IMG/VR virus record: IMGVR_UViG_3300045988_093172
Strand: one strand, 5' to 3'
DNA: 41,107 nt
Source: a virus
The position numbers were made by a program, and so were the translations under genes. This document shows positions 1-41,107 of the stretch, piece by piece (position 1 is the first letter of the stretch; every line of letters begins with the position of its first letter). The notes under the pieces were generated by a model. It searched no databases, was not told the DNA's origin, and saw only the letters and a list, made by a program, of their open reading frames with translations.

Positions 1-89
1 GAGTCACCATGGGCATCACCGTCGTCTTCGGTACGTCCGTTGCGACCATCTTCGGGGTCTTCCTTATCCCCATGATGTTCATCATCGTA
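1..89. repeat. Left copy of the 89-bp perfect direct repeat bounding the window (identical to 41019..41107). Candidate attL / attP core; alternatively terminal redundancy or a circular-assembly overlap.
   Basis: Read directly. Bases 1-89 (gagtcaccatgggcatcacc...gttcatcatcgta) recur exactly at 41019-41107, so the window starts and ends with the same sequence. The 3' end of the integrase gene lies 83 bp away. Confidence 0.95.
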
Positions 90-161
90 GAAACATTCGG
101 ACACAATAAGAAATCCTTTAGTGTGATGAAGGAAACTGTGGAAGATAAGCGCCTACATTAG
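3..161 (+). CDS. 3'-terminal fragment of a membrane transporter gene whose 5' end lies outside the window. The last TM helix resembles TM12 and the C-terminus of RND (AcrB/MexB-type) efflux permeases.
   Basis: Frame 3 is open from the window edge: VTMGITVVFGTSVATIFGVFLIPMMFIIVETFGHNKKSFSVMKETVEDKRLH, with stop TAG at 159-161. The pattern G..V..G...AT.....F..P..F..V followed by a charged tail matches my recollection of the AcrB C-terminus ([28 protein letters not shown]). The first 29 codons lie inside the 89-bp repeat. No search was possible. Confidence 0.45.
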   Translation, partial: VTMGITVVFGTSVATIFGVFLIPMMFIIVETFGHNKKSFSVMKETVEDKRLH

Positions 162-171
162 CACCTTTTGT

Positions 172-1239
172 CTACACGGGTAACGTCATGTGACACGTGG
201 GGAAGGAGTGTGTATAATACTTTAGGGTAGTCTCGATATTCGAGTGTCCCATAAGCATACTCACGGTCTTAACGTCCACATGGAATACCGTGATGAGCAA
301 GGTAGCATAGGTGTGTCTTGTGTCGTACAGATGGTGTCCCTTGGAACTCCCTAGTACGACTTCTACATACTTCTTAAAACGAACATTCACATTATCCTTA
401 CTTAGATAACCGTAGGTACTCTTCTCAGACCTGAAGATGCTTACGGTTTTCTTTTCGATTTTGTCTAATAACCACAGACCCCACTTTGTCTCTATGGGAA
501 CCTCCCGTATACTTGTGGGAGTCTTCATGGTTTCCTGTAGCTTGCCTTGGAATCCCAGTGACTTGTTGAAGGACACTCTGTCTTCCTTAATGTCTTCTCT
601 GGTTAAGGCAAGTATTTCCTGTGGTCTTGCTCCCGTAATAAAGGAAAGCACAATGTACACTTGGTATACCACAGGTAGGGTAGACAAATTCTCAATAGAT
701 AACAACTTCTGGACTTCCTCTAGGGAGAACACCTTCTTTTGTCTCTCTTGTCTTCCTTTTAACCTCCTTATGGCTTGTCGGGATTCCATAGGGTTGTTCT
801 CAAGATACCCTTCGAGTACCGCTGTTTCTAGGATAGCTTTAAAGTTTTTCCTCCAGCGATCTAGGGTAGTAGTGGCATAGCCCCTTGAGGATAACCCTAG
901 GAAAAACCGATTAATGTCCTGAGGTGTTAGGTCAGAGAACTTTATATGAGCTACCTTGCTGTTTTCTACATGTTTTCGATAGAATTGCTTTAGACCATTT
1001 AAGGTAGACTCACGGTATACTCCCGATTTAAGTTCCATGAAGTGTTCATAGTATTCTGCTACGGTAACAGGGGAGAAGTATTTGATGTCTTTCCCTTTGA
1101 TGTCCATGAAGAACTTCTGGCACTCCTCACGTGTATCAAAGGTTTTACTAACTCGCTTACCTCCTGATACGGTGATAGTGGCCTTGAATCTTCCATTGGG
1201 TCTCCTCACGATTGACCCTGTACCTTTGGTTCTTCTCAT
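172..1239 (-). CDS. int: Tyrosine recombinase / phage integrase (355 aa) with an arm-binding-type N-terminus
   Basis: The ORF track gives 172..1365. I place the start at ATG 1239 (MRRTKGTGSIVRRPNGRFKATITV...) because GGAGG lies 5 nt upstream. The N-terminus resembles the integrase arm-type DNA-binding domain. The C-terminus carries the catalytic signature HHLYDTRHTYATLL ... LMGHSNIETTLKYYTH (R..HxxR..Y). Confidence 0.9.
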   Translation of the reverse strand: MRRTKGTGSIVRRPNGRFKATITVSGGKRVSKTFDTREECQKFFMDIKGKDIKYFSPVTVAEYYEHFMELKSGVYRESTLNGLKQFYRKHVENSKVAHIKFSDLTPQDINRFFLGLSSRGYATTTLDRWRKNFKAILETAVLEGYLENNPMESRQAIRRLKGRQERQKKVFSLEEVQKLLSIENLSTLPVVYQVYIVLSFITGARPQEILALTREDIKEDRVSFNKSLGFQGKLQETMKTPTSIREVPIETKWGLWLLDKIEKKTVSIFRSEKSTYGYLSKDNVNVRFKKYVEVVLGSSKGHHLYDTRHTYATLLITVFHVDVKTVSMLMGHSNIETTLKYYTHSFPTCHMTLPV

Positions 1240-2266: not shown

Positions 2267-2464
2267 TTATTTTAATTCAAGTATTTCATCTGCCGATATA
2301 TTATAGTACCTCGCCAGCTTGCGTATAACATCTATTTTAGGTTCCCTGGTGCCGTATTCGTAGCGTTGATATACCTGTTCTTTTATCCCTAAGGCCTCTG
2401 CTACTTCTTTTTGTGTCTTTTCTCGTTCTTCTCTCAGTTGTTTTAGTTTTTTATTAAGACTCAT
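2267..2464 (-). CDS. XRE-family HTH repressor (65 aa, cI-like position, no peptidase domain)
   Basis: MSLNKKLKQLREEREKTQKEVAEALGIKEQVYQRYEYGTREPKIDVIRKLARYYNISADEILELK is a typical HTH_3 fold signature. I move the start from 2497 to ATG 2464 because AAGGAAGGA precedes it and the longer version would run into the operator/promoter. Confidence 0.85.
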   Translation of the reverse strand: MSLNKKLKQLREEREKTQKEVAEALGIKEQVYQRYEYGTREPKIDVIRKLARYYNISADEILELK

Positions 2465-2484
2465 AAATTTTTCCTTCCTTCCTC

Positions 2485-2513
2485 TTGACACAACCAAATG
2501 GTTGTTGTATTAT
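2485..2513 (+). promoter_or_regulatory. Host (sigma70-type) early rightward promoter: TTGACA-17 bp-TATTAT
   Basis: TTGACA lies at 2485-2490 and TATTAT at 2508-2513, with a 17-bp spacer filled by operator O1. A TATAAT on the opposite strand (2509-2514) could serve the repressor gene, giving back-to-back divergent promoters. Confidence 0.6.
2490..2505. promoter_or_regulatory. Operator O1: 16-bp palindrome ACAACCAAATGGTTGT
   Basis: Perfect inverted half-sites ACAACCA / TGGTTGT. It lies in the spacer of the rightward promoter and between the leftward -10 and the repressor RBS. Confidence 0.7.
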
Positions 2514-3626: not shown

Positions 3627-3637
3627 ACTAGTGACTT

Positions 3638-3660
3638 TTAATTGTGCCACATAAAGAAGA
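3638..3660 (+). promoter_or_regulatory. Degenerate phage-promoter-like sequence TTAATTGTGCCACATAAAGAAGA
   Basis: 19 of 23 positions match the promoter consensus TTAATTGTCACACATACAGAGGA. It lies 15 bp upstream of the 3676 gene. Confidence 0.3.
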
Positions 3661-3675
3661 AAGGAAGTGTCTAGT

Positions 3676-4515: not shown

Positions 4516-5064
4516 ATGAAAAAAGATATGACGGAAAAGCAATTAAAATTTTGCTTCAATGTGTACGGCCAAGTGCAGGAAGTGTTGTTCTTGCGCACTC
4601 AATGCGCTGAAGAAAGAATAGTTATCTTTCAGCTCAATCAGCAGACACGTAGTCTAGGTCAATGTCACCTGTATGGTTCTGATCTGGCACGTATTGAAAT
4701 CAGTGAATACGCCTTAGATGACACGGGTATGCCCTTTATGGAAACCCTAGTCCACGAATGTATTCATGCTTGCCTGCCCATGCACGAACACCATGGCAGT
4801 AAATTTCAGCAGGCTTGCTTAGTGTGTGGGGAACACTTTGACCTAACCTTGTCTCGATTAGCGTCCCCTAGCGTCACTAAGGCCTTTGTCTCGAACCAGC
4901 CTAGGGGCAAGTATAAAGTCGTGTGGGAAGACGGCGACTACGCCTACTACAAGACTAAGAGGAAGTGGATAGTCAAGGATTTGCTGGCACATGGTGGCTC
5001 TCGTGTCTACAAGCTCACTACAGGGGAAACCTTAAAAGCCAGCTTGATTGTAAGGGGAGACTAG
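4516..5064 (+). CDS. SprT-like zinc metalloprotease domain protein
   Basis: TLVHECIHACLPMHEHHGSKFQQ carries HExxH followed by the HG..F motif typical of the SprT-like family. RBS is AAGGGAGG. Confidence 0.6.
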   Translation: MKKDMTEKQLKFCFNVYGQVQEVLFLRTQCAEERIVIFQLNQQTRSLGQCHLYGSDLARIEISEYALDDTGMPFMETLVHECIHACLPMHEHHGSKFQQACLVCGEHFDLTLSRLASPSVTKAFVSNQPRGKYKVVWEDGDYAYYKTKRKWIVKDLLAHGGSRVYKLTTGETLKASLIVRGD

Positions 5065-5427: not shown

Positions 5428-5447
5428 AACCAAACATAGGTTTGGTT
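5428..5447. promoter_or_regulatory. Palindrome AACCAAAC-ATAG-GTTTGGTT abutting the RNAP-gene promoter
   Basis: Eight-bp inverted arms whose right arm overlaps the first two bases of the phage promoter. The same CCAAAC-N4-GTTTGG geometry occurs at 8302-8317. Confidence 0.5.
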
Positions 5448-5468
5448 AATTGTCACACATTCTAGGAG
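5446..5468 (+). promoter_or_regulatory. Phage RNAP promoter, variant copy, directly upstream of the RNAP gene
   Basis: TTAATTGTCACACATTCTAGGAG shares the invariant TAATTGTCACACAT. It differs from the other copies in the initiation region (TTCTAGGAGG versus ACAGAGGA). The AGGAGG doubles as the RBS for ATG 5480. Confidence 0.75.
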
Positions 5469-5479
5469 GAGGAATAAAA

Positions 5480-8041
5480 ATGATGACATTAGAACAACAA
5501 TTAGAACTTGAAAAGATGTACAAAGGCTTAGCAGAAAATCGTGCTTTGCAGGTGTTGAACAAGGCAAAAGCTGACGGGGCCTATGAACGGACAAAGGTTG
5601 GTCAAGGTGTCATGAATCACCTAGCAGAAACCTATACGAAAAACGTAGAAGCCTTTGTTACAGACTGCTTACAGCCGAAACGTGGGGTTCAACCTGCATA
5701 CGCAAAAATCGTCAAGGACTACGTACTGGCCCTAGGTGGAGACACACAGAAATTTTCAAGACTCTGTGCTACTTTGTCTCTTAAAATGGCCCTTAGTGCC
5801 ATGATGAGACGTTCCCATGTAGCTAACAATATTGGGGGTGCAATCGGTCTTGAACTGGAACCAGAAGTAGAAGCAATGGCTTTCTTTGCAGACAAGAACA
5901 ATGTCAAGCGTTTTAACAAGGCCATTAGCTCCCGTGTAGGCTTTTCCTATCGTAGAATCTTCATGGAACATGTCTATGAAGGTGTTGGATTTACCTTTGT
6001 CAAGCATACAGCGAAAGAAAGAACGTCTTTAGGTATGCAGTTGTTAGCTGTCCTAGTGGAAACGACGGACTTCTTTGTCTTTCAAGAAGTATCTGAAGAT
6101 GGCAAGACACAGCCTTTACAGTTACTTCCTACAGATATCTTCTTAAAAGCGATAGCCAATGCAGAAGACAAGAGTATCAGCCTAGCTATTACGTATGTAC
6201 CGACTATCATCCCTCCGAAACCATGGACTAGCATGTGGGACGGGGGTTACTATGGGGCTTTGTCTCAGAATAAAACCTTAATGCGTTACATCCCCTATGC
6301 AAGGTCTTCACAGACACGCAAGTTATACACTAGTAGACTCAATGAACTTGATCTATCTAGTTTATACTCAGCTGTCAATGCGATTCAAGCAACGGCCTAT
6401 AGAATCAACAAACCCGTGCTGGACATTCTCAAGTATTACCTAAGTATCGGCGGTGGCATTGCAGGACTAGCAGAGACAAAACCACTTGAACAGCTTCCAC
6501 GGTTCCCTCATGCCTATGAAGACATTAAGGAAGATGAAGAACTACTCAAGGCGTTCAAGGCACACAAAAAGAAGATGGTAGAAGTTGTACACAAGGAAAA
6601 TCAGCGAAAAGGGAAAGCCCTGAGAGCTGTCATGATTCTGAAGACCGCTGAAGATTTTGCTAAGTATGACTCAATCTGGTTCCCCATGAACATTGACTTT
6701 CGGGGCCGTGTCTATCCGATTCCTACGGGTCTCAACCCTCAAGGGGACGACATGACAAAATCCTTATTACAGTACGCTAACCCCGTCCCTGTGTCTACTG
6801 AAGACGCTCCCGACGCTATCAATTGGTTAGCAATCCACGGGGCAGGACTGGCAGGTCACGACAAGATTCCTCTGGAAGACCGTGTAGCATGGGTAGAGGA
6901 AAACAAGCAGAACATTTTGTCTAGTGCTGAAAATCCGCTGGACTTCCCATGGTGGCAGGAGCAGGACAAGCCATGGCAGTTCTTAGCGTGGGCCATGGAG
7001 TACAAACGGGCCTTAGAATACCTTGACAGCCATGGAACCCTAGCAGGTTTTGACTGCCGTTGTACAATCGCTTACGACGGGACTTGCTCAGGACTCCAGC
7101 ATTACAGTTGTCTGCTCCGTGACCCTGTAGGCGGTTCCGCTGTCAACTTGATTGACCACGATAAACCTTCAGATATTTATAGAGAAGTTTCGGATAAGGT
7201 ATTGACAATGGTCAAGAAAGATGTTATGGAAGGAACCACAAAAGGCAAGGAACGAAAAGACGGCACATTTGGGCCAGGGACAAAGCAAATGGCAGAAGCA
7301 TGGCTGGCACATGGCATTAATCGGAAAGTGTGCAAGCGCCCCGTCATGACCCTAGCTTACGGGAGTGGTCAATACGGATTCGCTGACCAAATCTATGAAG
7401 ACACCACGAGGGACAACCCCCACTTTGCAGGTGTCGGGGATAGACAAGCCGCTCAGTACCTAGCTAAGTTGACATGGAAGGCTGTACAGACAACCGTTGT
7501 AGCCGCTATTGAAGGTATGGAATGTTTGAAGAAGATTGCCACGGCCCTTGCAAAAGCCGATATGCCTGTCGAATGGGTAACACCTATGGGGCTTCCAATT
7601 CAGCAGATGTATCTAGCACGAAAGACAGAATCTTTCCAGCTCCGCCTAGGAAATGCTTCTACACGCTACCGTATCTACGTAACGACGGTTAGCGAAAACG
7701 AGGATGTAGACAGACACAAGCAAGCAACAGGGGTAGCTCCCAATTTCATCCACTCCCTCGACGCTACTCACTTGATGATGAGCATTAATGAAGCAAGTAA
7801 AGAAGGGTGTGTGAACTTCAGTACCGTTCATGATTCTTTCGGAACGTCCCTCGGTGAAGCGGCTCGATTACGCCGTATTATCAGACAACAGATGGTTAAG
7901 TTGTACACGGAGCATGATCCCTTAGCGGATTTCCTGAGACACGCTGAAGAGCTGTTAGGGGAACCACTGGACATTGAACTTCCTAAAAAGGGTTCCTTAG
8001 ACATTAACTGTATCTTAGATAGCAAGTTCGTTTTTCACTAG
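5480..8041 (+). CDS. Single-subunit DNA-directed RNA polymerase (T7 gp1-like, 853 aa)
   Basis: YDGTCSGLQHYSCLLRD, KRPVMTLAYGS and TVHDSFGT match the T7 RNAP palm motifs FDGSCSGIQHFSAMLRD, KRSVMTLAYGS and VHDSFGT. Start placed at ATG 5480 (RBS AGGAGGAGG) rather than 5450, which lies inside the promoter. Confidence 0.97.
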   Translation: MMTLEQQLELEKMYKGLAENRALQVLNKAKADGAYERTKVGQGVMNHLAETYTKNVEAFVTDCLQPKRGVQPAYAKIVKDYVLALGGDTQKFSRLCATLSLKMALSAMMRRSHVANNIGGAIGLELEPEVEAMAFFADKNNVKRFNKAISSRVGFSYRRIFMEHVYEGVGFTFVKHTAKERTSLGMQLLAVLVETTDFFVFQEVSEDGKTQPLQLLPTDIFLKAIANAEDKSISLAITYVPTIIPPKPWTSMWDGGYYGALSQNKTLMRYIPYARSSQTRKLYTSRLNELDLSSLYSAVNAIQATAYRINKPVLDILKYYLSIGGGIAGLAETKPLEQLPRFPHAYEDIKEDEELLKAFKAHKKKMVEVVHKENQRKGKALRAVMILKTAEDFAKYDSIWFPMNIDFRGRVYPIPTGLNPQGDDMTKSLLQYANPVPVSTEDAPDAINWLAIHGAGLAGHDKIPLEDRVAWVEENKQNILSSAENPLDFPWWQEQDKPWQFLAWAMEYKRALEYLDSHGTLAGFDCRCTIAYDGTCSGLQHYSCLLRDPVGGSAVNLIDHDKPSDIYREVSDKVLTMVKKDVMEGTTKGKERKDGTFGPGTKQMAEAWLAHGINRKVCKRPVMTLAYGSGQYGFADQIYEDTTRDNPHFAGVGDRQAAQYLAKLTWKAVQTTVVAAIEGMECLKKIATALAKADMPVEWVTPMGLPIQQMYLARKTESFQLRLGNASTRYRIYVTTVSENEDVDRHKQATGVAPNFIHSLDATHLMMSINEASKEGCVNFSTVHDSFGTSLGEAARLRRIIRQQMVKLYTEHDPLADFLRHAEELLGEPLDIELPKKGSLDINCILDSKFVFH

Positions 8042-8104: not shown

Positions 8105-8124
8105 TATTAAGAACACCTGTTTGG

Positions 8125-8147
8125 CTAATTGTCACACATACAGAGGA
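8125..8147 (+). promoter_or_regulatory. Phage RNAP promoter
   Basis: CTAATTGTCACACATACAGAGGA, preceded by GTTTGG as at two other copies. Confidence 0.8.
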
Positions 8148-8151
8148 ACCC

Positions 8152-8233
8152 CCTAAGTATTCCTAAGTAACTAAAGGAAGACTAATTAGGTTTAAGTAGG
8201 AGTAAGTATAGTTAAGTATTCCTAAGTATTCCT
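8152..8233. repeat. Array of 10-bp-phased TAAGTA(T)TCC repeats between tandem phage promoters
   Basis: AAGTA starts at 8155, 8165, 8194, 8204, 8214 and 8224. The 13-mer CCTAAGTATTCCT occurs at 8152, 8221 and again at 40840. Confidence 0.7.
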
Positions 8234-8243
8234 AGGGCTGAGA

Positions 8244-8266
8244 TTAATTGTCACACATACAAGGAA
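8244..8266 (+). promoter_or_regulatory. Phage RNAP promoter
   Basis: TTAATTGTCACACATACAAGGAA. Confidence 0.8.
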
Positions 8267-8301
8267 AGAAAAACTACTACTACTCTACCTCTGTGTCTAT
8301 C

Positions 8302-8317
8302 CCAAACACATGTTTGG
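8302..8317. promoter_or_regulatory. Palindrome CCAAACA-CA-TGTTTGG abutting a phage promoter
   Basis: It ends one base before the promoter at 8318 and has the same CCAAAC-N4-GTTTGG geometry as 5430-5445. Confidence 0.5.
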
Positions 8318-8340
8318 TTAATTGTCACACATACAGAGGA
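8318..8340 (+). promoter_or_regulatory. Phage RNAP promoter (consensus copy)
   Basis: TTAATTGTCACACATACAGAGGA, identical to the copy at 40764. Confidence 0.85.
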
Positions 8341-8371
8341 AAGGACACAAAATTTTCAAGGAGGTAAGGAC

Positions 8372-8812: not shown

Positions 8813-9308
8813 AAAACCTTTGTCTATCGTATTCAAACCCTTACGGGATGATATTGAAGTACCTCAAATCAAGACACAAGGTTCCGCAGGGGCAGACATT
8901 GTGATTCCCGACGATGTAACCATTGAGCCTTTTAGTCTTATTGGTAAGGGTACATTAGTTCCCTTGGGGTTCTCTTTAGATATTCCTGAAGGGATGCAAG
9001 TACATATCATGTTACGGTCAAGTGTTGGCTTGAAGACCCCTATCCGTTTGTCTAATGGTGTTGGTCTGATTGATTCAGATTACAAGGGCGAACTCTGCTT
9101 ACTACTTGATAATTTGTCTAAAAATTCAATTCACATCAAAAGTGGGACTCGAATAGCGCAATTAGTGCCGTTTCCTACCTTAAAGTGGGAGTTCGAGTTA
9201 ATTGTCACACATACAGGGGAAAGAAAGCATTTCAACCCTATCCAAAATACTAAGCGCAGTGGTGGCTTTGGGTCTACCACAAGAACAAAAGGAGACAAAA
9301 GCAAATGA
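8802..9308 (+). CDS. dut: dUTP diphosphatase (trimeric dUTPase)
   Basis: The five dUTPase motifs are recognisable: GSAGADI, LRSSVGLK, GLIDSDYKGEL, RIAQL and RSGGFGST. Confidence 0.9.
   Translation: MRTRKPLSIVFKPLRDDIEVPQIKTQGSAGADIVIPDDVTIEPFSLIGKGTLVPLGFSLDIPEGMQVHIMLRSSVGLKTPIRLSNGVGLIDSDYKGELCLLLDNLSKNSIHIKSGTRIAQLVPFPTLKWEFELIVTHTGERKHFNPIQNTKRSGGFGSTTRTKGDKSK
9198..9220 (+). promoter_or_regulatory. Phage RNAP promoter embedded in the 3' part of the dUTPase coding sequence
   Basis: TTAATTGTCACACATACAGGGGA, read as codons for ELIVTHTGE. Confidence 0.75.
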
Positions 9309-9845: not shown

Positions 9846-10316
9846 TTGTTCACAGGCGGTTTCCATACACCTGCTAAGACAAAACGAAGTAAGTATGAAG
9901 ACACGCTTACTGCTAACCTTGACAAAAAGAATAAAGAATACCATTACGAAGAGTTCTCTCTGGAGTACACGGTAAAGCACAAATATACCCCTGATTTTGT
10001 CTTGCCAAATGGCATTATTGTCGAGGCTAAGAACGGGGAAGGTGGCTTTGTCCGTGTTGGTAAAAAAGGGGGATTCTACAGAGGCTCATTGGATAGTGAA
10101 GCACGAGGGAAGATGCTGAAGGTAAAACGACAGTATCCCGAACTTGATATTCGCTTTGTCTTTCCTAAAGACTTTAAATTTCAGAGTTTGAAGACAACGG
10201 CGAGTAAGTGGTGCGAGAAGAATGGCTTTAAGTATCACATTGGAAACACGATCCCTGAGTCTTGGTTTAAAGAAGAGGGCCAAATTAGCCCCAAACTAAA
10301 AAAGAAAGGAAAGTGA
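9846..10316 (+). CDS. Endonuclease I (T7 gp3-like Holliday-junction resolvase)
   Basis: EYHYEEFSLEYTVKHKYTPDFVLPNGIIVEAKN matches T7 endonuclease I (KFEYEEWKVPY...HTYTPDFLLPNGIFVETKG). The only available start is TTG 9846. Confidence 0.85.
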   Translation: MFTGGFHTPAKTKRSKYEDTLTANLDKKNKEYHYEEFSLEYTVKHKYTPDFVLPNGIIVEAKNGEGGFVRVGKKGGFYRGSLDSEARGKMLKVKRQYPELDIRFVFPKDFKFQSLKTTASKWCEKNGFKYHIGNTIPESWFKEEGQISPKLKKKGK

Positions 10317-10317
10317 C

Positions 10318-10683
10318 ATGTTTAAATTCAGAGACAGAGAAGAAACTCTCTTCTACTCCTTTGTCTATAAAGAACTCGAAGGAAGAACTGTCTCCGAACT
10401 GTTGAAGGAAGCACGAAGAAAAGGAGCGTTTTCGTTACCGTATCACGCTGTAGTTCTCAAGAATGGCGAACTCGACCTCATGCGTCCGTTTGAAGCAGTC
10501 GGGGGTAGCGAACTTCCTTATAGTGCTTGTGGCGTTTATATTCTCGTGGATGCTGAATCTAAAGAGTCCTTATCGGCTTTACAGAAGAAGCGACTGGACG
10601 ATTTAGTTCAGATGTTCCACGAGGACTATGCAGACATCGTAGAGGAAGAGTTCAACAAAGATGAATTACAGCGAACCGATTAA
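10318..10683 (+). CDS. Short T7 gp3.5 (lysozyme/amidase)-like protein (121 aa), possibly non-catalytic
   Basis: It aligns by eye to T7 lysozyme (FKFRDRE / FKQRES, PYHAVVLKNGE / GYHFIIKRDGT, AVGG / AVGS, GVYILV / GVCLVG). It has Y where T7 has zinc ligand H17 and ends before the C130 region. Confidence 0.5.
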   Translation: MFKFRDREETLFYSFVYKELEGRTVSELLKEARRKGAFSLPYHAVVLKNGELDLMRPFEAVGGSELPYSACGVYILVDAESKESLSALQKKRLDDLVQMFHEDYADIVEEEFNKDELQRTD

Positions 10684-12256
10684 GACACACCTCCCTTGCC
10701 CTGACTGTGGTTCCTCGGATGCCCTGACAGAATACAGTGATGGTCACACATACTGCTTCTCCTGTCAAACGGTACGAGGAGCTACAACACAGGGGACACA
10801 TACAGCCGACCTTATACCTCTCACTTCTTTGTCTATTACTCCTCTAAAGCGGCGTGGAATCATGTCTACCACATGTGAAAAGTACCACTACTATACAGGT
10901 TATCACAATGGGAAACCTGTGCAGGTAGCGTGTTACTTTGACGACGCAGGGGAGCTGATAGGCCAGAAAGTACGGTATCAAGACAAAACGTTTGAGACGA
11001 TTGGTAAAATTTCCAAGCGTTTCTTTGGTCAAGAGCTTTTTGAGAGTAGAGGCAAGCTGGTAATCACAGAGGGTGAGATTGATTGTCTCACTGTGTCACA
11101 ACTACAAAATAACAAATATCCCGTTGTGTCTATCCCTTGTGGGGTGGCCTCGGCAAAGAAAGTATTGACACACAACATGGAGTGGCTATCACAGTTTGAT
11201 GAGGTCATTTTGATGTTTGATATGGATGAAGCAGGAAGGAAGGCCATCAAGGAATGTGCTGGACTCCTGAAGGATTTGAAGGTGGCTAATTTACCACTGA
11301 AAGACCCTAATGAATGTCTATTAGCTAACAAAGGGCAGTCCGTCATCAATGCTATCTGGAACGCTAAAGCATACAAGCCAGACGGTATTGTAAACGGAGC
11401 TGACCTCTGGGAGATGGTAGACAGCGAAGAAGACGAAATGTGCTATACATACCCTTGGGATATTCCACTAAACGACATGACAAAGGGCCTCCGAAAGGGG
11501 GAACTCGTTGTCGTTACCGCAGGTACAGGGGTAGGCAAGACTACGTTTGTAAGACAAATCATGTATGACTTGGGGGTCAAGAAAAACCTCAAAGTAGGAT
11601 GTATGATGCTTGAGGAAAATGTAAAGCGCACCTCCGTGGGACTTATGTCTATACACACGGGAGTACGCTTGCACTTATCAAGACACGCTATCAGTGAAGA
11701 AGAGTATCGGAAGGCATTTGATGAGACACTGGGGACAGGAAACTACGTACTCTACAATCACTTTGGAAGTCTTGAGGGTGACAACTTACTAAACAAGATT
11801 CGATATTTAGCTATTTCTGAGGAGTGTGACTTCATCGTTCTCGACCATGTGTCTATTGCTATCTCTGGTTTGGAGGGGGACAATGAGCGAAAACTGATTG
11901 ACTACCTCATGACACAGATGAGAAGCATTGTAGAAGAGACAGGGGTGGGCATGATTGTCATATCACACTTGCGAAGACCTGACAACTCTCAGAAGTCTCA
12001 TGAAGAAGGTGGTATTACCTCGCTGGCACAGCTCAGAGGCTCCCACGCTATCTCACAGCTTTCAGACATCGTACTGGGGCTGGAAAGGAATCAGCAGGAG
12101 TCCAATGAAGAGCTGAGAAACACCACTCGTGTACGTGTCTTAAAGAACCGCTTCACAGGTGAGACTGGCATAGGAGGCTACCTGACATACAACAGAAAAA
12201 CAGATCGCTTGGAAATAGCAGAGAAGGAAGAAGATGATGATGAAGCAGAATTTTAA
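10661..12256 (+). CDS. Bifunctional primase-helicase (T7 gp4-like)
   Basis: Contains a zinc ribbon (CPDCGSSDA...CFSC), a TOPRIM motif (EGEIDCLT, FDMDEAG), a Walker A motif (GTGVGKTT) and a DnaB-like C-terminal domain (VLDHVS, ISHLRR). Confidence 0.95.
   Translation: MNYSEPIKTHLPCPDCGSSDALTEYSDGHTYCFSCQTVRGATTQGTHTADLIPLTSLSITPLKRRGIMSTTCEKYHYYTGYHNGKPVQVACYFDDAGELIGQKVRYQDKTFETIGKISKRFFGQELFESRGKLVITEGEIDCLTVSQLQNNKYPVVSIPCGVASAKKVLTHNMEWLSQFDEVILMFDMDEAGRKAIKECAGLLKDLKVANLPLKDPNECLLANKGQSVINAIWNAKAYKPDGIVNGADLWEMVDSEEDEMCYTYPWDIPLNDMTKGLRKGELVVVTAGTGVGKTTFVRQIMYDLGVKKNLKVGCMMLEENVKRTSVGLMSIHTGVRLHLSRHAISEEEYRKAFDETLGTGNYVLYNHFGSLEGDNLLNKIRYLAISEECDFIVLDHVSIAISGLEGDNERKLIDYLMTQMRSIVEETGVGMIVISHLRRPDNSQKSHEEGGITSLAQLRGSHAISQLSDIVLGLERNQQESNEELRNTTRVRVLKNRFTGETGIGGYLTYNRKTDRLEIAEKEEDDDEAEF
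10738..10760 (+). promoter_or_regulatory. Weak candidate internal phage promoter inside the primase gene
   Basis: TGATGGTCACACATACTGCTTCT shares the 11-mer GTCACACATAC with the promoter core, but the upstream AT-rich part (3 of 5) and the initiation region differ. Confidence 0.2.
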
Positions 12257-32700: not shown

Positions 32701-34296
32701 GAACTCCGTAAGGCTAACGAGACACGTAGATTGATTAAACATAGCACTGTGTCTGATTCACTGGAAGAGTTCGACTATGTTGTTTCACAGCTTACTGGAT
32801 ATCGTTATGGTACGAAGCGCTCTCAAGACCCTATGAATGGTGTCGTTCGCTTGCTAACTAAGATGTCCTATGCAATGAATGGTTCCAACATGGGTCTGAA
32901 TCAGATAGGCGAAAACTTTGGGATGATGTCGGTTACTGGGATGAGAGCCATAGGCAACATGATTCCTGGGTTAGACAAAGTTCTCCATGGGATGCGTACT
33001 ACTACGTTGTCTCATGATGAACTGAAGAAACTAAGGATTGCCGCTGACTACTCGCAGTATAACTTCTTGAATCCTATGGATTTGTCTACTCCGAAGTATG
33101 ATCGTATTGGACTCCGTGCAAAGGTCATGGGGAAACTGAATAATGCCGTGGACTATGCTTCTGACATTACTTCTATGCTAAATCAGCTGAGTGCATGGAC
33201 AGAAAGAGCCATTAGTATGGGTGAGGCGGATGTTATGTCTGACCTTATCGACTGGGCTGTATTGGGGCGCAGAGGACACCTGTTCAACGACAATGCCTTC
33301 AAGAATGTGGGGGTAAGAGATACAGGGAAGTTCAAGGATACCATTAACAAATACTTTGGGAACCTTGACCATAACGACCCTGATGCCGTATTCAAGGCCA
33401 TTCATAAGATGCAGGAGGAAGACTACACCTCTTATATCTCCATGAGGGCCTTTACAGCACAGGCAGTTCAGCGGGGTATTATTCAGCCTAATTTGTCTAA
33501 TGCTAACTACTTCACGAAGACGGGACTGTTCCCAATGCTCCTTCAGTTCAAGAACTTCTCTCGTATGGCTATTAATAGTCATCTAGCGAGAGCCTTGGAA
33601 CGACCAGACAAAGAAGCAATGACACAGCTGTTGAGTTCGGCTGTTGCTGGTGCTGGCATTTGGGCCTTGCGTACTCAGGTGTATGCAAATTGGAAATACA
33701 AAGATGAGGCTGAACGGAAGAAGTTCCTTGACGACACGCTGACCCCTGACAACTTTGCCCGTGCTGGTATCACTCGGTCTTCTCTGTTGGCTGGGTTATC
33801 CTTTGGGAATGACTTGTACGAAGCTGTGTCTGGTGCGCCTACGGTACGTACTACTGTAAATCGACAAGGTGGTTCTTCACAGGGGCTTGGTAGTTACATA
33901 GATCAGCTTCCTGCTGTGGCCGCTCTGAATACCGTGAAAGATGGTGTTGGTAGCGCATGGAGCGCCTTAAATGACCTTGTAGTAGACAATCGAGTATATC
34001 AGGATGATAGCAAGACGATTGCGAATATGTTCCCTCTGGATAAGTTTGTAGGAACTCAAGCTGTTTTGTCTGGATTGCTTGATATGCATAAGGGACAAAT
34101 CAGTCAGGATAGCTTCTCGAAACGTCCTGAGACAAAACCTTCTCGCAATCCAATTCAAATGCTTCAGAAGGTAGTGACAGGGACAAATGATGTAGAGGAG
34201 GCGCAGAAGAAACAGAAGGAAACACAGAAGTCTCGTAGTAAAAGTAAGAAGCAGGAACAACGAAAGTATTTAAATATGAATGGAGGTAAATGGTGA
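29740..34296 (+). CDS. Internal virion (core/ejection) protein, gp16-like, with an N-terminal lytic transglycosylase domain (1518 aa or slightly longer)
   Basis: NKESGMDYTLPNSSGSGASGAYQFMQGTW fits the SLT pattern (ES...GA.G..Q....T) found at the N-terminus of T7 gp16. ATG 29740 has no RBS. The frame is open upstream, and AAGGAGG at 29695-29701 is followed 8 nt later by an in-frame ATA at 29710, so the true start is uncertain. Confidence 0.8.
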   Translation: MYNIGNKESGMDYTLPNSSGSGASGAYQFMQGTWDSYAEKVAPEYVGVAPMNAPAEVQDAVMYEKTSEMYDRYGGNIQLMALEHYGGMGAADEAMRTGHIPENAEWCNGDEYPSQASYAREIAESMGQAVPNLNAFAGAFAKGGKITAGNPSFSLILDESPLEIARMNNRPFWDKLEDSFKNMWYENGTIAAMRVGLTKMNANPYYSTWKASDEDIKLLDEVLGDNKVAKDAVLLNAENPEQFKALLKMKKEDIEREKRAEQTSFGLHSVIGGALGMLLDPLNLIPFVGEEAFLVKVGARLGSKALVSLGSKRIMKIAESAAVQGALNMADSGLAERYGIHEANYAVAGVLGTAGGAGVRFLRTMRELKVPMNGEHMQRFLYQSERMQDQAVQDALDIADKRAMQTHSLLNTTEASIEKQLDDFLGGTPTLSKKESKALGKSLGKLLPEEDVEKVVGKKAPKLLRDAGLSGDATVTDLLQKAGSIPSLGAKVRKAIEKYRKTPMSDSTWNAYLTSKGANPEAGVNRVKLAEEALQDDKKASALQDWIKKTKGEDVPIDDLRVGLKQILYRESGVGYTKNEDALIINGTVVRENSPVYDAIVHPEIYDPVSVPMSMPRTEERVVSERHTLPKKDTQPTVSTAEQEAFTNDVEMGSKTLREVEDENQRGFKSRVMRYIGRKMEDSKYLGDTYGHFTNSVSNHLRDFGRKMLGDPRQNAERHAQGVSLDFSTRKSVMQRQLKEYIGSMRQCYRDYFAQHAGMPSKVRRQFGREFLQAYDQKVKYGRSIEGFPKEIQEAVRQAENFRKLEQEFLRRTGALTKDIPDTGFYRRADVDKVAEFLTNFDSEQDAIDWLANYASKNADRDALERMRIIEEPDMELSEYVDREARNWAFGIIDRNLSNAKVTMRDLNHMDKLEQYQRRFPMDTSALSDKTMPNGEYFSFDECLRDYDVFSTMEQVANRSSAKATMASLGVKDMGAFFDGYRDKIERELRKANETRRLIKHSTVSDSLEEFDYVVSQLTGYRYGTKRSQDPMNGVVRLLTKMSYAMNGSNMGLNQIGENFGMMSVTGMRAIGNMIPGLDKVLHGMRTTTLSHDELKKLRIAADYSQYNFLNPMDLSTPKYDRIGLRAKVMGKLNNAVDYASDITSMLNQLSAWTERAISMGEADVMSDLIDWAVLGRRGHLFNDNAFKNVGVRDTGKFKDTINKYFGNLDHNDPDAVFKAIHKMQEEDYTSYISMRAFTAQAVQRGIIQPNLSNANYFTKTGLFPMLLQFKNFSRMAINSHLARALERPDKEAMTQLLSSAVAGAGIWALRTQVYANWKYKDEAERKKFLDDTLTPDNFARAGITRSSLLAGLSFGNDLYEAVSGAPTVRTTVNRQGGSSQGLGSYIDQLPAVAALNTVKDGVGSAWSALNDLVVDNRVYQDDSKTIANMFPLDKFVGTQAVLSGLLDMHKGQISQDSFSKRPETKPSRNPIQMLQKVVTGTNDVEEAQKKQKETQKSRSKSKKQEQRKYLNMNGGKW

Positions 34297-35969
34297 ATAG
34301 TCAAAACTTGAAAGCGAGTGTCTCCTTTGTTGGGGATGGCACTACAAATAAATTTTACTTCGGGTTCGACTATATCAATAAGCAGTTCGTGAAGGTTCAA
34401 ATAGGTAATGAGGGGCAATCCCTCACCTATCCTTCCGACTATACTGTGGATGATAGAAGCGTCGTCCTGAAGGATACCCCTGCTGTGGGGGTGGCTATCA
34501 GGGTATATCGTGAGACTTCTTCAGATAGAATTGTTGAGTGGGCAGATGGTGCTTTTATTAAGGCTTCTCAGATGACACTGGAAAACTTACAGCAGTTACA
34601 CCTGATTGAAGAAGCTCAGGACTACCCTATACTAAACTCTTTGTCTACGTACCCTGATGGGGTTAACTTTAATGCTTTAGGTTCTCGTGTCATTAACGTA
34701 AGTGACCCCAAAGACCCTCAAGATGCCGTAACGAAGCATTACATGGAGAGCGTCCAGAATGGTTTTGTAGCGACCAATACAATCTTGGTACAGGAAGCAA
34801 CGAAGCAAGCGTCCGCCGCAAAGTCTTCTCAGGAAGTCGCTAAGACCTCGGAGACAAATGCAAAAACTTCGGAAACCAATTCTGAAATTTCTAATCAAAA
34901 AGCGAAGAAGTGGGCAGAAGCTACGGATTCTCCAGATGGTGAAGTGGATACGGATAGTACCACAGGGAAGACACAGAGTTCTAAAGAGTGGGCTTTGTAT
35001 AGCAAAACGAAGGCACAGGAAGCGGCAACGTCCGCAACGAACGCTAAGAGTTCTGAGACAAACGCAAAGACCTCTGAAACCAATGCGAAAACCTCGGAAA
35101 CCAATGCGAAGTCATCCGAAACGAAGGCAAAGACCTCAGAAACCAATGCAAAAACATCAGAAACTAATGCGAGTGCAAGTGCCTCTGCCAGTGCGTCTAG
35201 TGCTAGTGCGTCTGCTACGAGCGCCACTAATGCACATAATTCAGAGACGGCCGCCGCTAACAGTGCTAAACAGGCCGCAGAATCAGCAGGTGTCTTTCAG
35301 GACTTTAAGGGGAGCACATCGTCCGCAGATGGTCTTGGTGGTAAAGTTCCTAAACCTTTAGCAGGACAGCAGGAAAGGTATCTAAAAGCGGATGGCACAT
35401 GGAGTGACATTCCTAAATTAACCCCTAATACGCTGTGGGACACCATTCATTCTTATGGGAAGAACTATGTCCCTTCTGATACATCTAACGAAGGGTGGAA
35501 TAAATTAGGATTTGCTTCTATTTCTTACTCAGAGGTTAAGATTAATAATCAACCAAACCAGTATGGACAGCTTATTAATATTCCATACGATCAAGGAGCA
35601 GAGAGTACACAGTTGTGGTTAGATCAAGATACTGGTCTTATCCACTTTAGAGGGAGCAACGTAGCCGATATTGTGAATAATCTTCCCTTTAAAACTGTTG
35701 CTACTACAGATGATGTTAATGCCAGAGAAAAAGTGAATAGCCAAGGGGGCAACTGGATTCGGTATAAAAGTGGTTTACAACTTTGTTGGAACTCATGGAT
35801 TGATGCAGGTGCATGGTGGTCTTTCCCAGTTGCTTTTTCAGGGACTCCTGCTGTAACCATTACAGCTCGTACTGGTGATTGGCAGTGGGTTGATGGTCTT
35901 TCTAATACAGGCTTTACAAACAAGGGGAGTGGTGGTGCGTGTGCCATTGCAGTAGGAAGGTGGAAATAA
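34290..35969 (+). CDS. Tail fiber protein, with a T7 gp17-like N-terminal adaptor domain
   Basis: The N-terminus (FVGDGTTNKFYFGFDYINKQFVKVQIG...RVYRETSSDRIVEWADGAFIKASQMTLENLQQLHLIEEAQD) parallels T7 gp17 (LDGSNRDFNIPFEYLARKFVVVTLIG...[40 protein letters not shown]). The central region is repetitive and the C-terminal domain is unique. Confidence 0.9.
   Translation: MVNSQNLKASVSFVGDGTTNKFYFGFDYINKQFVKVQIGNEGQSLTYPSDYTVDDRSVVLKDTPAVGVAIRVYRETSSDRIVEWADGAFIKASQMTLENLQQLHLIEEAQDYPILNSLSTYPDGVNFNALGSRVINVSDPKDPQDAVTKHYMESVQNGFVATNTILVQEATKQASAAKSSQEVAKTSETNAKTSETNSEISNQKAKKWAEATDSPDGEVDTDSTTGKTQSSKEWALYSKTKAQEAATSATNAKSSETNAKTSETNAKTSETNAKSSETKAKTSETNAKTSETNASASASASASSASASATSATNAHNSETAAANSAKQAAESAGVFQDFKGSTSSADGLGGKVPKPLAGQQERYLKADGTWSDIPKLTPNTLWDTIHSYGKNYVPSDTSNEGWNKLGFASISYSEVKINNQPNQYGQLINIPYDQGAESTQLWLDQDTGLIHFRGSNVADIVNNLPFKTVATTDDVNAREKVNSQGGNWIRYKSGLQLCWNSWIDAGAWWSFPVAFSGTPAVTITARTGDWQWVDGLSNTGFTNKGSGGACAIAVGRWK
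35043..35168 (+). repeat. Six tandem 21-nt repeats encoding the heptapeptide AK(T/S)SETN inside the tail fiber gene
   Basis: AKSSETN AKTSETN AKTSETN AKSSETK AKTSETN AKTSETN. Two further units lie at 34839-34880, and an (S/A)n tract follows (35169-35228). Confidence 0.9.
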
Positions 35970-38779: not shown

Positions 38780-39055
38780 ATGAGTAAAATCAATCCGGAA
38801 CTGCTGGATATTCTGGCACAGGAAGAAGTTAATGCCTTGATTGAGGGTATTCAGAATGAAGACTTGAGACACAGCCCTCAGTTCTTGGCAAAAGTCAGAC
38901 AGTTCTTGAAAGACAATGAGCTGAAGACAACTCCTGAAACGACGACGCCTTTGGTGTCCATGGTTACAAAAGAATTGCCTGACTTCTTGGATGATGATGA
39001 AGATGAAGGGGGTGCTGTGAAGGGTGCAGGTTCAGTGGACTCCAGAGCAAATTGA
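38780..39055 (+). CDS. Terminase small subunit, T7 gp18-like
   Basis: Position directly upstream of terL, size (91 aa versus 89 aa), and a shared SPQ(F/L) segment plus acidic C-terminus as I recall them from T7 gp18. Start moved from 38762 to ATG 38780 (RBS GAAAGGA). Confidence 0.65.
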   Translation: MSKINPELLDILAQEEVNALIEGIQNEDLRHSPQFLAKVRQFLKDNELKTTPETTTPLVSMVTKELPDFLDDDEDEGGAVKGAGSVDSRAN

Positions 39056-40739
39056 AGCGGCTAAGAAAGACTTCAGGAAGTTCTTGTTTATCCTCTGGCA
39101 TGAGATAGCCCTTCCTGAACCGACAGACATACAGTATGCTATTGCGACACTCCTCATGAAATGCCCTGAGAAACGATATATCATTGAAGGGTTCCGTGGG
39201 GTAGCTAAGTCCTTCATTACTTGTGCTTATGTCGTATGGTCACTTTGGAATGACCCTCAACTGAAGTGTCTCATTATCTCTGCAAGTAAAGACAGAGCAG
39301 ATGCAAACGCCGTGTTTATCCGAAAGATAATCTACTTACTAGACTTTTTGTCTCACCTAAAACCTCGTGACGGACAGCGTAACACTCAGAATCTTTTTGA
39401 TGTTGGGGAAGCCGTAGCGGATATTTCCCCCTCTGTAAAGTCTGTTGGTATTACGGGTCAGATAACAGGTAGCCGTGCGGACATACTGATTGCGGATGAC
39501 GTAGAGATTCCCAATAATTCCAGTACACAGACACGGAGGGACAAGCTGTTTGAGGATGTTAAGGAATTTGATGCCATTATCAAGCCGGGGGATAGAAGTA
39601 AGGTTATATACCTCGGTACTCCGCAGAACGAAATGTCTCTGTACAATGAGCTTCAGAATCGTGGATATTCCTGCTATATTTTCCCGCTGGTATACCCTGA
39701 GACACCAGAAGAGCGTGAGTATTACGGGGACAAATTAGCTCCTTTTATTGCTACCCCTTACGACAAAAACCCTGCTCTGTATGCAGGAAAGCCGACTGAC
39801 CCTAGAAGATTCCCTGAAGAGGAAATTGAGGAACGTCGGCAGTCCTACGGTAAAGCAGGGTTTTCCTTACAGTTCAAACTGAATACGAACTTGTCTGACT
39901 ACGAAAAATATCCCCTGAAGACACAGGACTTGATTGTGTCTAATGTGGACATGGATGAAACCTCTTTGAAGTGGTCATGGTCAAGCGGTTATGAGTATCG
40001 TCTGAATGACCTCCCCTGTGTCGCCATTAAGGGCGACTTTTTCTATCGTGAGCATAGTAGAAGCCAGGAGACAGCTAAGTATACAGGATGTGTTATGGCT
40101 GTTGACCCTTCTGGTAGAGGTACTGACGAGACTGCCTACGCTATCGTGAAGTACCTGAATGGGTATCTCTTTGTAGTAGAAGTAGGAGGTTTTCAGGATG
40201 GTTACTCAGATGCCGTGTTGACACAGCTGGCTAACAAGGCTAAAATCCATGGAGTTAATGAGATTATCGTAGAAGCAAACTTTGGGGACGGTATGTTCAC
40301 TCAGCTATTCAAGCCTATCCTGACGAGTATTTACCCCTGTGCTGTACAGGAAGTGAAGAACACAGTACAGAAGGAAGCTCGTATTATAGACACCTTAGAA
40401 CCTGTTATGATGAGACACAAGATTATCATGACTGAGACAGTTATTCGTGATGATTACAGCGTGTATGAGGAAAAGGGACAGAAATATTCGCTGATTTACC
40501 AGATGACCCGTCTGAGTAGAGATAGGGGTTCATTGGCACACGATGACCGCTTAGATGCCCTGACTATGGCTGTGTCTTACTGGTTGGATGTCATGGATAG
40601 AGATTACCAGACTGGACTGGATGAACAGTTAGAAGAATTTCTGGAGACAGCTCTGGATGATGATCGGGGTCTGTTCTCTATGATGTATGGAGAAGTAGAA
40701 GATAGTAGTAATAGGAACATCATGAAGAAAAAATGGTAA
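39024..40739 (+). CDS. Terminase large subunit, T7 gp19-like
   Basis: FRGVAKSFITCAYVVWSLWNDPQLKCLIISASKDRADANAVFIRK, SVGITGQITGSRADILIADDVEIPNNS, VIYLGTPQNEMSLYNEL and LAHDDRLDAL closely parallel T7 gp19. GTG start at 39024. Confidence 0.95.
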   Translation: MQVQWTPEQIEAAKKDFRKFLFILWHEIALPEPTDIQYAIATLLMKCPEKRYIIEGFRGVAKSFITCAYVVWSLWNDPQLKCLIISASKDRADANAVFIRKIIYLLDFLSHLKPRDGQRNTQNLFDVGEAVADISPSVKSVGITGQITGSRADILIADDVEIPNNSSTQTRRDKLFEDVKEFDAIIKPGDRSKVIYLGTPQNEMSLYNELQNRGYSCYIFPLVYPETPEEREYYGDKLAPFIATPYDKNPALYAGKPTDPRRFPEEEIEERRQSYGKAGFSLQFKLNTNLSDYEKYPLKTQDLIVSNVDMDETSLKWSWSSGYEYRLNDLPCVAIKGDFFYREHSRSQETAKYTGCVMAVDPSGRGTDETAYAIVKYLNGYLFVVEVGGFQDGYSDAVLTQLANKAKIHGVNEIIVEANFGDGMFTQLFKPILTSIYPCAVQEVKNTVQKEARIIDTLEPVMMRHKIIMTETVIRDDYSVYEEKGQKYSLIYQMTRLSRDRGSLAHDDRLDALTMAVSYWLDVMDRDYQTGLDEQLEEFLETALDDDRGLFSMMYGEVEDSSNRNIMKKKW

Positions 40740-40758
40740 TTGTCACACATATATACAA
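40736..40758 (+). promoter_or_regulatory. Phage RNAP promoter, variant copy overlapping the terminase stop codon
   Basis: GTAATTGTCACACATATATACAA. The invariant 14-mer is present but the initiation region is divergent. Confidence 0.65.
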
Positions 40759-40763
40759 AGTCG

Positions 40764-40786
40764 TTAATTGTCACACATACAGAGGA
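40764..40786 (+). promoter_or_regulatory. Phage RNAP promoter (consensus copy) at the extreme right end, pointing toward the 89-bp repeat
   Basis: TTAATTGTCACACATACAGAGGA, identical to 8318-8340. Its position is equivalent to T7 phiOR. Confidence 0.85.
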
Positions 40787-40801
40787 AAGCAGAGGAAAAC
40801 T

Positions 40802-40882
40802 AAAGTATATCTAAGTATTTCCTCTGTTCCTCTAGTATACCTAAGTATTCCTTAGTATTACAGTTAGGAGTCCTTTAGTATC
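40802..40882. repeat. 10-bp-phased (T/A)AGTAT repeats downstream of the right-end promoters
   Basis: AGTAT starts at 40804, 40814, 40834, 40844, 40854 and 40877. The array contains the 13-mer CCTAAGTATTCCT (40840-40852), shared with the 8152-8233 array. Confidence 0.7.
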
Positions 40883-40887
40883 CTAAA

Positions 40888-40958
40888 GAACCCCGAACCT
40901 TAGGAACTCAAAGGGAACACAACTGGAACCCTAAGAGAACTCCGTAGGAACTCACTAA
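40888..40958. repeat. 11-bp-phased GGAAC/GAGAAC repeats next to the 89-bp repeat
   Basis: GAAC starts at 40888, 40895, 40904, 40915, 40926, 40937 and 40948; the last five are exactly 11 bp apart. Units are TTAGGAACTCA / AAGGGAACACA / ACTGGAACCCT / AAGAGAACTCC / GTAGGAACTCA. Confidence 0.7.
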
Positions 40959-41018
40959 GGAAAAGCACCAACAACTACACCTAACTACCTCCTATAAAGA
41001 ACTACTAAGAGGAACCCA

Positions 41019-41107
41019 GAGTCACCATGGGCATCACCGTCGTCTTCGGTACGTCCGTTGCGACCATCTTCGGGGTCTTCCTTATCCCCATGATGTTCAT
41101 CATCGTA
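41019..41107. repeat. Right copy of the 89-bp perfect direct repeat (candidate attR / attP core)
   Basis: Identical to 1-89. The transporter-like frame is closed by TAA at 41006-41008, 4 codons upstream of this copy, so the coding-looking sequence starts essentially at the repeat boundary. Confidence 0.95.

Follow-up and report, generated by a model that had tools for sequence, protein, structure and literature searches.

A probable temperate T7-like phage of the Megasphaera elsdenii group with its attachment site in the 3′ end of an RND efflux permease gene

Genes and terminal repeat of the window

The window, by which we mean the whole stretch of 41,107 nt analysed here, is bounded by a direct repeat. 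Bases 1–89 and 41019–41107 are identical at 89 of 89 positions, which is beyond chance for a match of this length, and no other long exact repeat occurs in the window. The left copy (1–89, plus strand) holds the last two bases of the codon for Arg1001 and the codons for Val1002–Val1030 of a host RND permease, corresponding to transmembrane helix 12 (TM12). Its reading frame starts at base 3, is open at the window edge and encodes VTMGITVVFGTSVATIFGVFLIPMMFIIV, then continues into unique sequence as ETFGHNKKSFSVMKETVEDKRLH and ends with a TAG at 159–161. The stop codon of a convergent integrase gene lies at 172–174, and only 10 bp (162–171) separate the two stops. The right copy (41019–41107, plus strand) is preceded by phage DNA, and its frame is closed by a TAA at 41006–41008, four codons (E E P R) ahead of the first Val. 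In all of this, namely the exact duplication, the frame running from the edge to a stop 10 bp short of the integrase stop and the early closure of the frame at the right copy, the original prediction was accurate. The repeat is also an island of composition: the G+C content of the repeat and core is 52–54%, like the 55% of the M. elsdenii RND gene and unlike the 43.6% of the whole window.

The convergent gene (172–1239, minus strand) encodes a tyrosine integrase recognized by the Pfam family Phage_integrase (PF00589; 56.6 bits, cut-off 27.1), a SAM-like N-domain and PHROG 1. Translation likely starts at the ATG at 1237–1239, which follows a GGAGG and gives a protein of 355 aa (360 aa in relatives); the longest open reading frame extends to 1365. 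The residue series R...HxxR...H...Y is visible in the motifs GARPQE, YDTRHTYAT, GHS and LKYYTH. Further genes comprise an HTH repressor-like gene of the lysogeny module (2267–2497, minus strand), which matches PHROG 8, 3 and 4 (transcriptional regulator/repressor), a single-subunit T7-like RNA polymerase (5450–8041, plus strand; Pfam RNA_pol, E = 1.4e-104) and a T7-type large terminase (39024–40739, plus strand; PF22530, Terminase-T7_RNaseH-like, E = 1.9e-40; PHROG 38). The terminase is the final gene ahead of the phage attachment site, attP, and the stretch from its stop codon to the core (40740–41018, plus strand) is a non-coding P arm that contains two copies of a promoter-like motif (40737–40760 and 40765–40788).

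This motif, TAATTGTCACACATAC, was found in seven occurrences in front of genes. Copies of the form (G)TTAATTGTCACACATACAGAGGAAA lie upstream of genes at 3637–3672, 5445–5480, 8124–8159, 8243–8278, 8317–8352, 9197–9232, 40737–40760 and 40763–40798. The motif is probably a promoter for the phage’s own RNA polymerase, as judged from its sequence and placement. Together, the single-subunit RNA polymerase, the T7-type terminase and the repeated phage-specific promoter-like motif characterize the phage as T7-like. The last two motif copies lie just past the terminase gene and are oriented across attP.

Close relatives are absent from the collections of described phages. No phage terminase in the INPHARED / GenBank phage collection exceeds 56% identity to the large terminase of the window, and a Megablast comparison of the window with GenBank phages found no relatives, only fragments of 50 nt in unrelated phages. 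Neither a tRNA nor any Rfam element was found in the window, and a tRNA attachment site was therefore excluded. An imperfect direct repeat of 94 nt with 71% identity (34787–34880 and 35012–35105) lies inside an open reading frame of 559 aa (34290–35969), a late gene with a repetitive segment that may encode a tail fibre.

The target gene in Megasphaera

The 52-aa peptide encoded at 3–161 is too short to be classified by profile alone. Against ACR_tran (PF00873), it aligns with profile positions 994–1020/1021 at an E-value of 0.62 and 8.1 bits, where the cut-off is 28, and the other matches in Pfam are likewise below threshold (Amj, 0.037; DUF485, 0.19). The profile search that had been proposed for the fragment is thus not significant on its own, and the assignment to the RND family is based instead on near-identity to the ends of full-length genes. 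A protein search returned open reading frames of 46–58 aa on contigs of 40–66 kb as well as two truncated PF00873 proteins that reach further upstream as ...GAGAASRVTMG.... A scan with conserved peptide words across one genome per GTDB species gave matches only at the 3′ ends of RND genes of Megasphaera, Anaeroglobus, Colibacter and Veillonella.

The gene order at the locus is exemplified by M. elsdenii MSK.21.52 (L013), where genes for a TetR regulator, an HlyD-family membrane fusion protein (MFP) and an RND permease of 1050 aa are followed by a convergent NAD synthase gene (nadE). Both this uninterrupted permease and the 1055-aa permease of a lysogen (L011, see below) match ACR_tran over positions 1–1020/1021 with 1042–1045 bits (E = 0). 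In a phmmer search against the PDB, the last 199 aa of the permease matched AcrB, MexB, CmeB and other HAE1 structures with E-values of about 3e-58 to 1e-52. The alignment places the core-encoded segment ‘rvtmgitvvfgtsvatifgvflipmmfiivet’ on the final helix of AcrB/MexB-type pumps, which ends near residue 1030. The MFP and TetR genes stand immediately upstream of the RND gene, and the presence of an MFP partner implies a tripartite pump.

The hosts identified in this way belong to Megasphaera, a genus of the class Negativicutes and hence diderm Firmicutes; Negativicutes possess outer membranes with LPS (PMC5007114). From the repeat and its frame, the original prediction had recognized TM12 of an AcrB/MexB-type permease, proposed the 3′ end of a host RND gene as the target and deduced a host with an outer membrane. 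The full-length genes, the structural alignment and the taxonomy of the hosts bear out each of these points.

The intergenic region next to the attachment site is variable. In the M. massiliensis group (L020, L022 and L024, positions 10150–11750), the RND gene and nadE are separated by about 1.4 kb with two paralogous small lipoprotein-like open reading frames (189 and 186 aa), whereas in other Megasphaera only a terminator separates the two genes.

Four forms of the attachment site

The window itself contains no host DNA, and the evidence for integration comes from other contigs of the same phage lineage and from a sister lineage whose terminase, integrase and RNA polymerase are about 84%, 65% and 56% identical, respectively. 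Across the two lineages, all four forms of the site were compared: the empty bacterial site attB (L012–L016), the junctions attL (L095–L097 and L011) and attR (L001, L004–L009 and L028), and attP (L091, L092, L093, L098, L003 and L010).

At attB, the RND gene ends with its native tail, ETFGHKRVRPKQ.VGRLKDM, which is followed by a hairpin-plus-T-run terminator and then by nadE. The comparison with uninfected relatives that had been suggested could thereby be made in M. elsdenii itself. The attL junction was sought with a 26-mer from the phage-specific tail (window 111–136), which is present in five metagenome contigs. Three of the five (L095, L096 and L097, with lengths of 147, 78 and 92 kb) contain attL of the window’s lineage, in which the body of the RND gene runs through the core and into the phage tail. 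Here, the tail reads ETFGHSKKSFSVMKETV(E/K)DK(R/H)LH and is followed by an integrase 98.7–99.5% identical to that of the window. In L096, a single unbroken RND match covers residues 1–1037, with the phage tail attached. An RND gene body leading into the first base of the repeat, as the original prediction anticipated, is therefore present in the attL contigs of the window’s own lineage. The attR junction of the same lineage (L001) consists of a terminase 98% identical to the window’s, the core, the native tail ETFGHKRVRPKQEVGRLKDM and a nadE gene 96% identical to that of M. elsdenii, with more chromosomal genes beyond. Finally, attP is contiguous, in the order phage right arm, core and phage left arm, in L091, L092, L093 (core 89/89) and L098, a contig of 41.2 kb in which the site is internal.

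The sister lineage provides a lysogen in culture. In Megasphaera sp. AM44-1BH, attL (L011) and attR (L028) lie 39,467 bp apart on one contig; the former shows an intact RND open reading frame of 1055 aa with a complete ACR_tran match, followed by integrase and RNA polymerase genes, and the latter shows terminase, core and nadE. Sister-lineage attP is found in L003 and L010. Furthermore, the phage copy in each lineage matches its own host group, reading ETFGH in one and ENIGH in the other. With attB, attL, attR and attP thus in hand for the window’s lineage and the sister lineage, the interpretation of the repeat as an att core is supported. A protein search with a constructed hybrid of RND and phage tail, in an index that seems biased toward short proteins, retrieved no attL protein; all matches were short fragments bearing the native tail.

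Two of the contigs show irregularities. In L091, a gap of 10 N (1568–1577) joins a contig of the RND gene body to a contig of attP form (right arm, core, tail and int); this suggests that both attL- and attP-type read pairs were present in the sample, as from a lysogen with some excised phage. In the attR contig L001, the core contains a 33-bp tandem duplication (4587–4652, tccccatgatgttcatcatcgtagaaacattcg twice) that corresponds to window 68–100 and yields an odd protein, P0005. Either aberrant recombination or an assembly error could account for the duplication.

Extent of the core and position of the crossover

For the delimitation of the core, all sites were anchored on the window and compared with the empty sites L012–L016. 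The block of phage-host identity spans positions 1–106 (plus strand), where attP of the window agrees with M. elsdenii-group attB at 104 of 106 positions (both L013 and L012). Its left edge is base 1 of the window: phage and host already differ at the base before it (A and C, respectively), and nothing further upstream is similar. Its right edge is base 106, after which the phage continues with TAAG... and the host with the unrelated sequence ACGG.... The end of the repeat between bases 89 and 90 is accordingly no boundary of homology, because identity with the host goes on to base 106. The codon directly after the repeat is a Glu codon (GAR) and is invariant in nine of nine homologues. The proposed att core of 89 bp is hence upheld as an att core and corrected in length, the block of identity being 106 bp.

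Within the core, polymorphisms among copies of the lineage are synonymous at five sites and exchange V for I at one, a pattern expected of coding sequence under selection. SNPs also allow the crossover to be placed in AM44-1BH, with L010 serving as a proxy for its attP. Positions 20, 32 and 56 are of the phage type in attR and not in attL, and position 81 is of the phage type in attL and not in attR. This single switch would put the exchange between positions 57 and 80, so that crossover in the window would take place within about 57–80 (plus strand), inside the TM12 coding sequence, as mapped by homology from the L011/L028 pair of this one sister-lineage lysogen. A conservative range is 57–101, which applies if position 81 is a private mutation.

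Identity upstream of the deduced crossover thus amounts to at least 56 bp (window 1–56), and to about 48 bp in the sister lineage. This upstream identity is superfluous for reconstitution of the gene. Variants in window 1–56 mirror host alleles, which hints at gene conversion between the phage and host copies. A search for arm-type repeats around attP as exact 8-mers gave nothing convincing.

The surrogate 3′ end and the hybrid pump

The phage-borne 3′ end of the RND gene was originally placed at 90–161 (plus strand). The attL contigs L095–L097, where the phage tail is joined in frame to the RND body, substantiate a surrogate end as such; its first part, 90–106 (ETFGH), is identical to the host, and the phage-specific tail proper is 107–161, encoding (N)KKSFSVMKETVEDKRLH followed by the TAG stop. 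The target open reading frame is full length and in frame in lysogens, with 1055 aa in L011 and an unbroken match over residues 1–1037 plus phage tail in L096. Replacement is confined to the last 15 native residues, KRVRPKQTVGRLKDM becoming NKKSFSVMKETVEDKRLH, and the basic juxtamembrane cluster is kept. Overall, only the last 15–18 residues of the pump are altered, and the hybrid pump is predicted to be functional.

Three polymorphisms were observed in the tail (107–161) within the lineage (N>S, E>K and R>H). All are non-synonymous and none is synonymous, and there is therefore no sign of protein-level selection on the tail sequence. We see no evidence in these sequences that the tail is of importance beyond closing the frame. 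The extreme C-terminus of AcrB tolerates tags, which fits a tail whose sequence matters little in other respects. A terminator between the RND stop and int was looked for and none was detected.

Across the two lineages, a KSF(S/N)..VK motif and the DNA sequence AAATCCTTTA are conserved in the tail. The conservation of the DNA could reflect a constraint at the DNA level, that is, on attP.

Origin of the terminal duplication

Although the repeat is att sequence, its length probably is not a biological boundary, as its right edge falls short of the homology edge. The invariant Glu codon and the host identity up to base 106 predict that a genuine attL/attR repeat would measure at least 91 bp and typically 106 bp. 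The likelier account, in our view, is therefore that the 89-bp end duplication arose in assembly, where a cyclic path through the graph set out from the first k-mer common to phage and host and closed with an overlap of k = 89. The contig starts at the left homology edge, as is expected of a branch node in a de Bruijn graph, and sibling contigs are interrupted at these edges too, L099 beginning at core base 6 and L094 at base 105. Contigs assembled by MEGAHIT with k = 89 do occur in gut metagenome sets, as the contig name of L090 documents. The contig of the window is itself absent from the viral and metagenome collections searched. The original prediction had counted a repeat length equal to a k-mer overlap as evidence against an attachment site. 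Such an overlap is indeed probable, yet the att reading stands, because the contig starts exactly at the left phage-host homology edge; for an arbitrary break, the chance of a start at this very base is 1 in 41,000. We favour describing the window as attP on a cyclic contig over treating it as a proven pair of attL and attR.

Alternatively, the window could be an integrated prophage cut in silico at its attL and attR direct repeats, in which case the 89 bp would be physically present twice in the source chromosome. Lysogens of the lineage do exist, as witnessed by attL in L095–L097 and attR in L001, and the repeat starts precisely at the left homology edge. The right edge is harder to reconcile with this origin: an M. 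elsdenii-type repeat would be 106 bp, or at least 91 bp by the Glu codon, and the window stops at 89. Moreover, attL and attR of AM44-1BH, the one lysogen for which both ends are available, differ from each other at four to five positions in this region, whereas the copies in the window are perfect, and few pipelines trim exactly at att repeats. A cut prophage is thus rather unlikely.

The duplicated sequence has also to be considered as something other than an attachment site. The RND fragment could be an expressed phage gene of 50 aa starting at the ATG at 9–11, encoding a membrane peptide that mimics TM12, or it could be an accidentally captured piece of host DNA. Gene callers predict an open reading frame of 46–52 aa in several phage contigs (P0001–P0004), and the ATG as well as an upstream stop are retained in both lineages. 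The Met in question is, however, an invariant residue of the host protein, no ribosome-binding site is conserved across the lineages, and the complete set of att forms accounts for the fragment fully, which makes both versions very improbable compared with an att core. Least credible is a physical direct terminal repeat of the virion DNA in the manner of T7: the phage is T7-like in its RNA polymerase and terminase, and terminal repeats of T7-like phages sit between the terminase and the early genes just as the 89-bp repeat does, but the repeat consists of host coding sequence and resembles the host in G+C content, its first base falls exactly on the edge of phage-host homology, it is single-copy and internal in L092, L093 and L098 of the same phage, and virion ends falling on the att core would again be a 1-in-41,000 coincidence.

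Proposed mechanism of integration

Taken together, the window very probably represents the genome of a temperate T7-like podophage that infects the Megasphaera elsdenii group, integrates within the 3′ end of an RND gene and brings a replacement for the part it displaces. In the proposed scheme, attP would have the terminase gene on one side and the convergent integrase gene on the other and carry a 106-bp copy of the 3′ end of the host RND gene, comprising TM12 and the first five codons of the tail. The tyrosine integrase (172–1239, minus strand), whose activity on attP and attB is predicted from its sequence, would recombine attP with the identical chromosomal sequence. With strand exchange at about 57–80, the host would supply the gene up to about codon 1020, and at attL the phage would give the remainder of TM12 (...FLIPMMFIIV), ETFGH, a different cytoplasmic tail of 18 residues and the stop codon. 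The pump gene of the lysogen would thereby stay full length, at about 1053 aa compared to 1050 aa in the native form. At attR, the displaced native 3′ end would come to lie behind a phage-supplied stop codon and beside the convergent nadE.

Integration on this model would deprive the pump operon of its native terminator and place it head-on to int, with 10 bp between the stops. At the other junction, the last two copies of the promoter-like motif would fire toward the displaced native RND tail and nadE. Going by gene geometry, one may speculate that induction of the TetR-controlled and presumably drug- or bile-inducible pump leads to antisense transcription through int, tying prophage stability or excision to chemical stress, or else that the exchanged tail alters pump activity and amounts to lysogenic conversion of drug tolerance; we regard either consequence as improbable. 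Every lysogen would carry a pump with an altered C-terminus and without its native terminator, which could bear on drug or bile tolerance in Megasphaera. Members of the genus are used as rumen probiotics.

Relation to known systems

The closest precedent for the strategy is the integration of prophages into the icd gene. In E. coli, the prophage e14 provides the 3′ end of icd (PMC6379469). As in the phage described here, a tyrosine-integrase prophage is located within the 3′ end of a protein-coding gene and brings a homologous replacement end. The result is an intact gene with a minor change at its C-terminus, and the native end is left as a pseudo-fragment at the other junction. Phage 21 reportedly follows the same strategy at the 3′ end of icd and shares these features. 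The systems differ in several respects: the target is an RND efflux permease, of which TM12 and the cytoplasmic tail are concerned, where icd encodes a metabolic enzyme; the phage is T7-like, not lambdoid, and its host belongs to the diderm Firmicutes; and the block of homology is 106 bp as compared to about 160 bp in e14. Neither this phage nor an att site in an RND gene came up in literature searches, which were of incomplete coverage. The e14/phage 21-type strategy is known, then, and the RND target gene is new, adding an efflux permease to the short list of protein-coding att genes with replacement of the 3′ end.

A second group of relevant systems comprises temperate relatives of T7. Pelagiphages of the HTVC019P type, the cyanophage P-SSP7 and lysogenic Autographiviridae of Pseudomonas have a T7-like architecture, encode a tyrosine integrase at the left end of the genome and integrate site-specifically. 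To our knowledge, the att sites reported for temperate T7-like podophages are tRNA genes. Temperate T7-like podophages with integrases as such are already known (bioRxiv 10.1101/410191; PMC10142737). The phage of the window shares with them the single-subunit RNA polymerase, the T7-type terminase and the left-end tyrosine integrase, and differs in that it targets a protein-coding gene and infects Negativicutes. Temperate T7-like phages are accordingly present in diderm Firmicutes.

Comparison with tRNA genes as att sites of temperate phages and genomic islands is instructive in its own right. In both cases, the element carries the 3′ part of its target and the crossover is situated inside the gene. 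At tRNA genes, identity runs to the 3′ end of the gene, which is regenerated exactly, whereas here a sequence without homology takes the place of the extreme 3′ end. In addition, the target here is protein-coding and identity extends over at least 56 bp upstream of the deduced crossover.

For an uncultured phage lineage of the human or animal gut, sequence alone sufficed to assign a host, the Megasphaera elsdenii group, and to place the site of integration exactly. The case also calls for caution where a direct terminal repeat (DTR) is taken to indicate a complete genome, given that the terminal repeat of this contig is host-derived att sequence whose length was probably set by the assembler and not by the virion.

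The same end of the RND gene is found next to other DNA as well. In L002 (1–180), AT-rich DNA with no relation to this phage stands ahead of the core and native tail beside nadE and runs to the end of the contig; another mobile element may use the same att site. Veillonella loci screened for related phages at the same site gave no integrase, terminase or RNA polymerase match. In a Veillonella MAG (L079, 2649–2975), an orphan 3′ fragment of an RND gene encodes 108 aa (ACR_tran 932–1020) with no gene body upstream, and on a JGI contig of 1244 bp, the protein P0014 has the N-terminus of a DUF2815 protein (PF10991, phage-type) fused in frame to an RND C-terminus from ...AAIEAAKIRLRP onward. These two fragments may derive from other elements that insert at this gene end and duplicate a longer segment of it.
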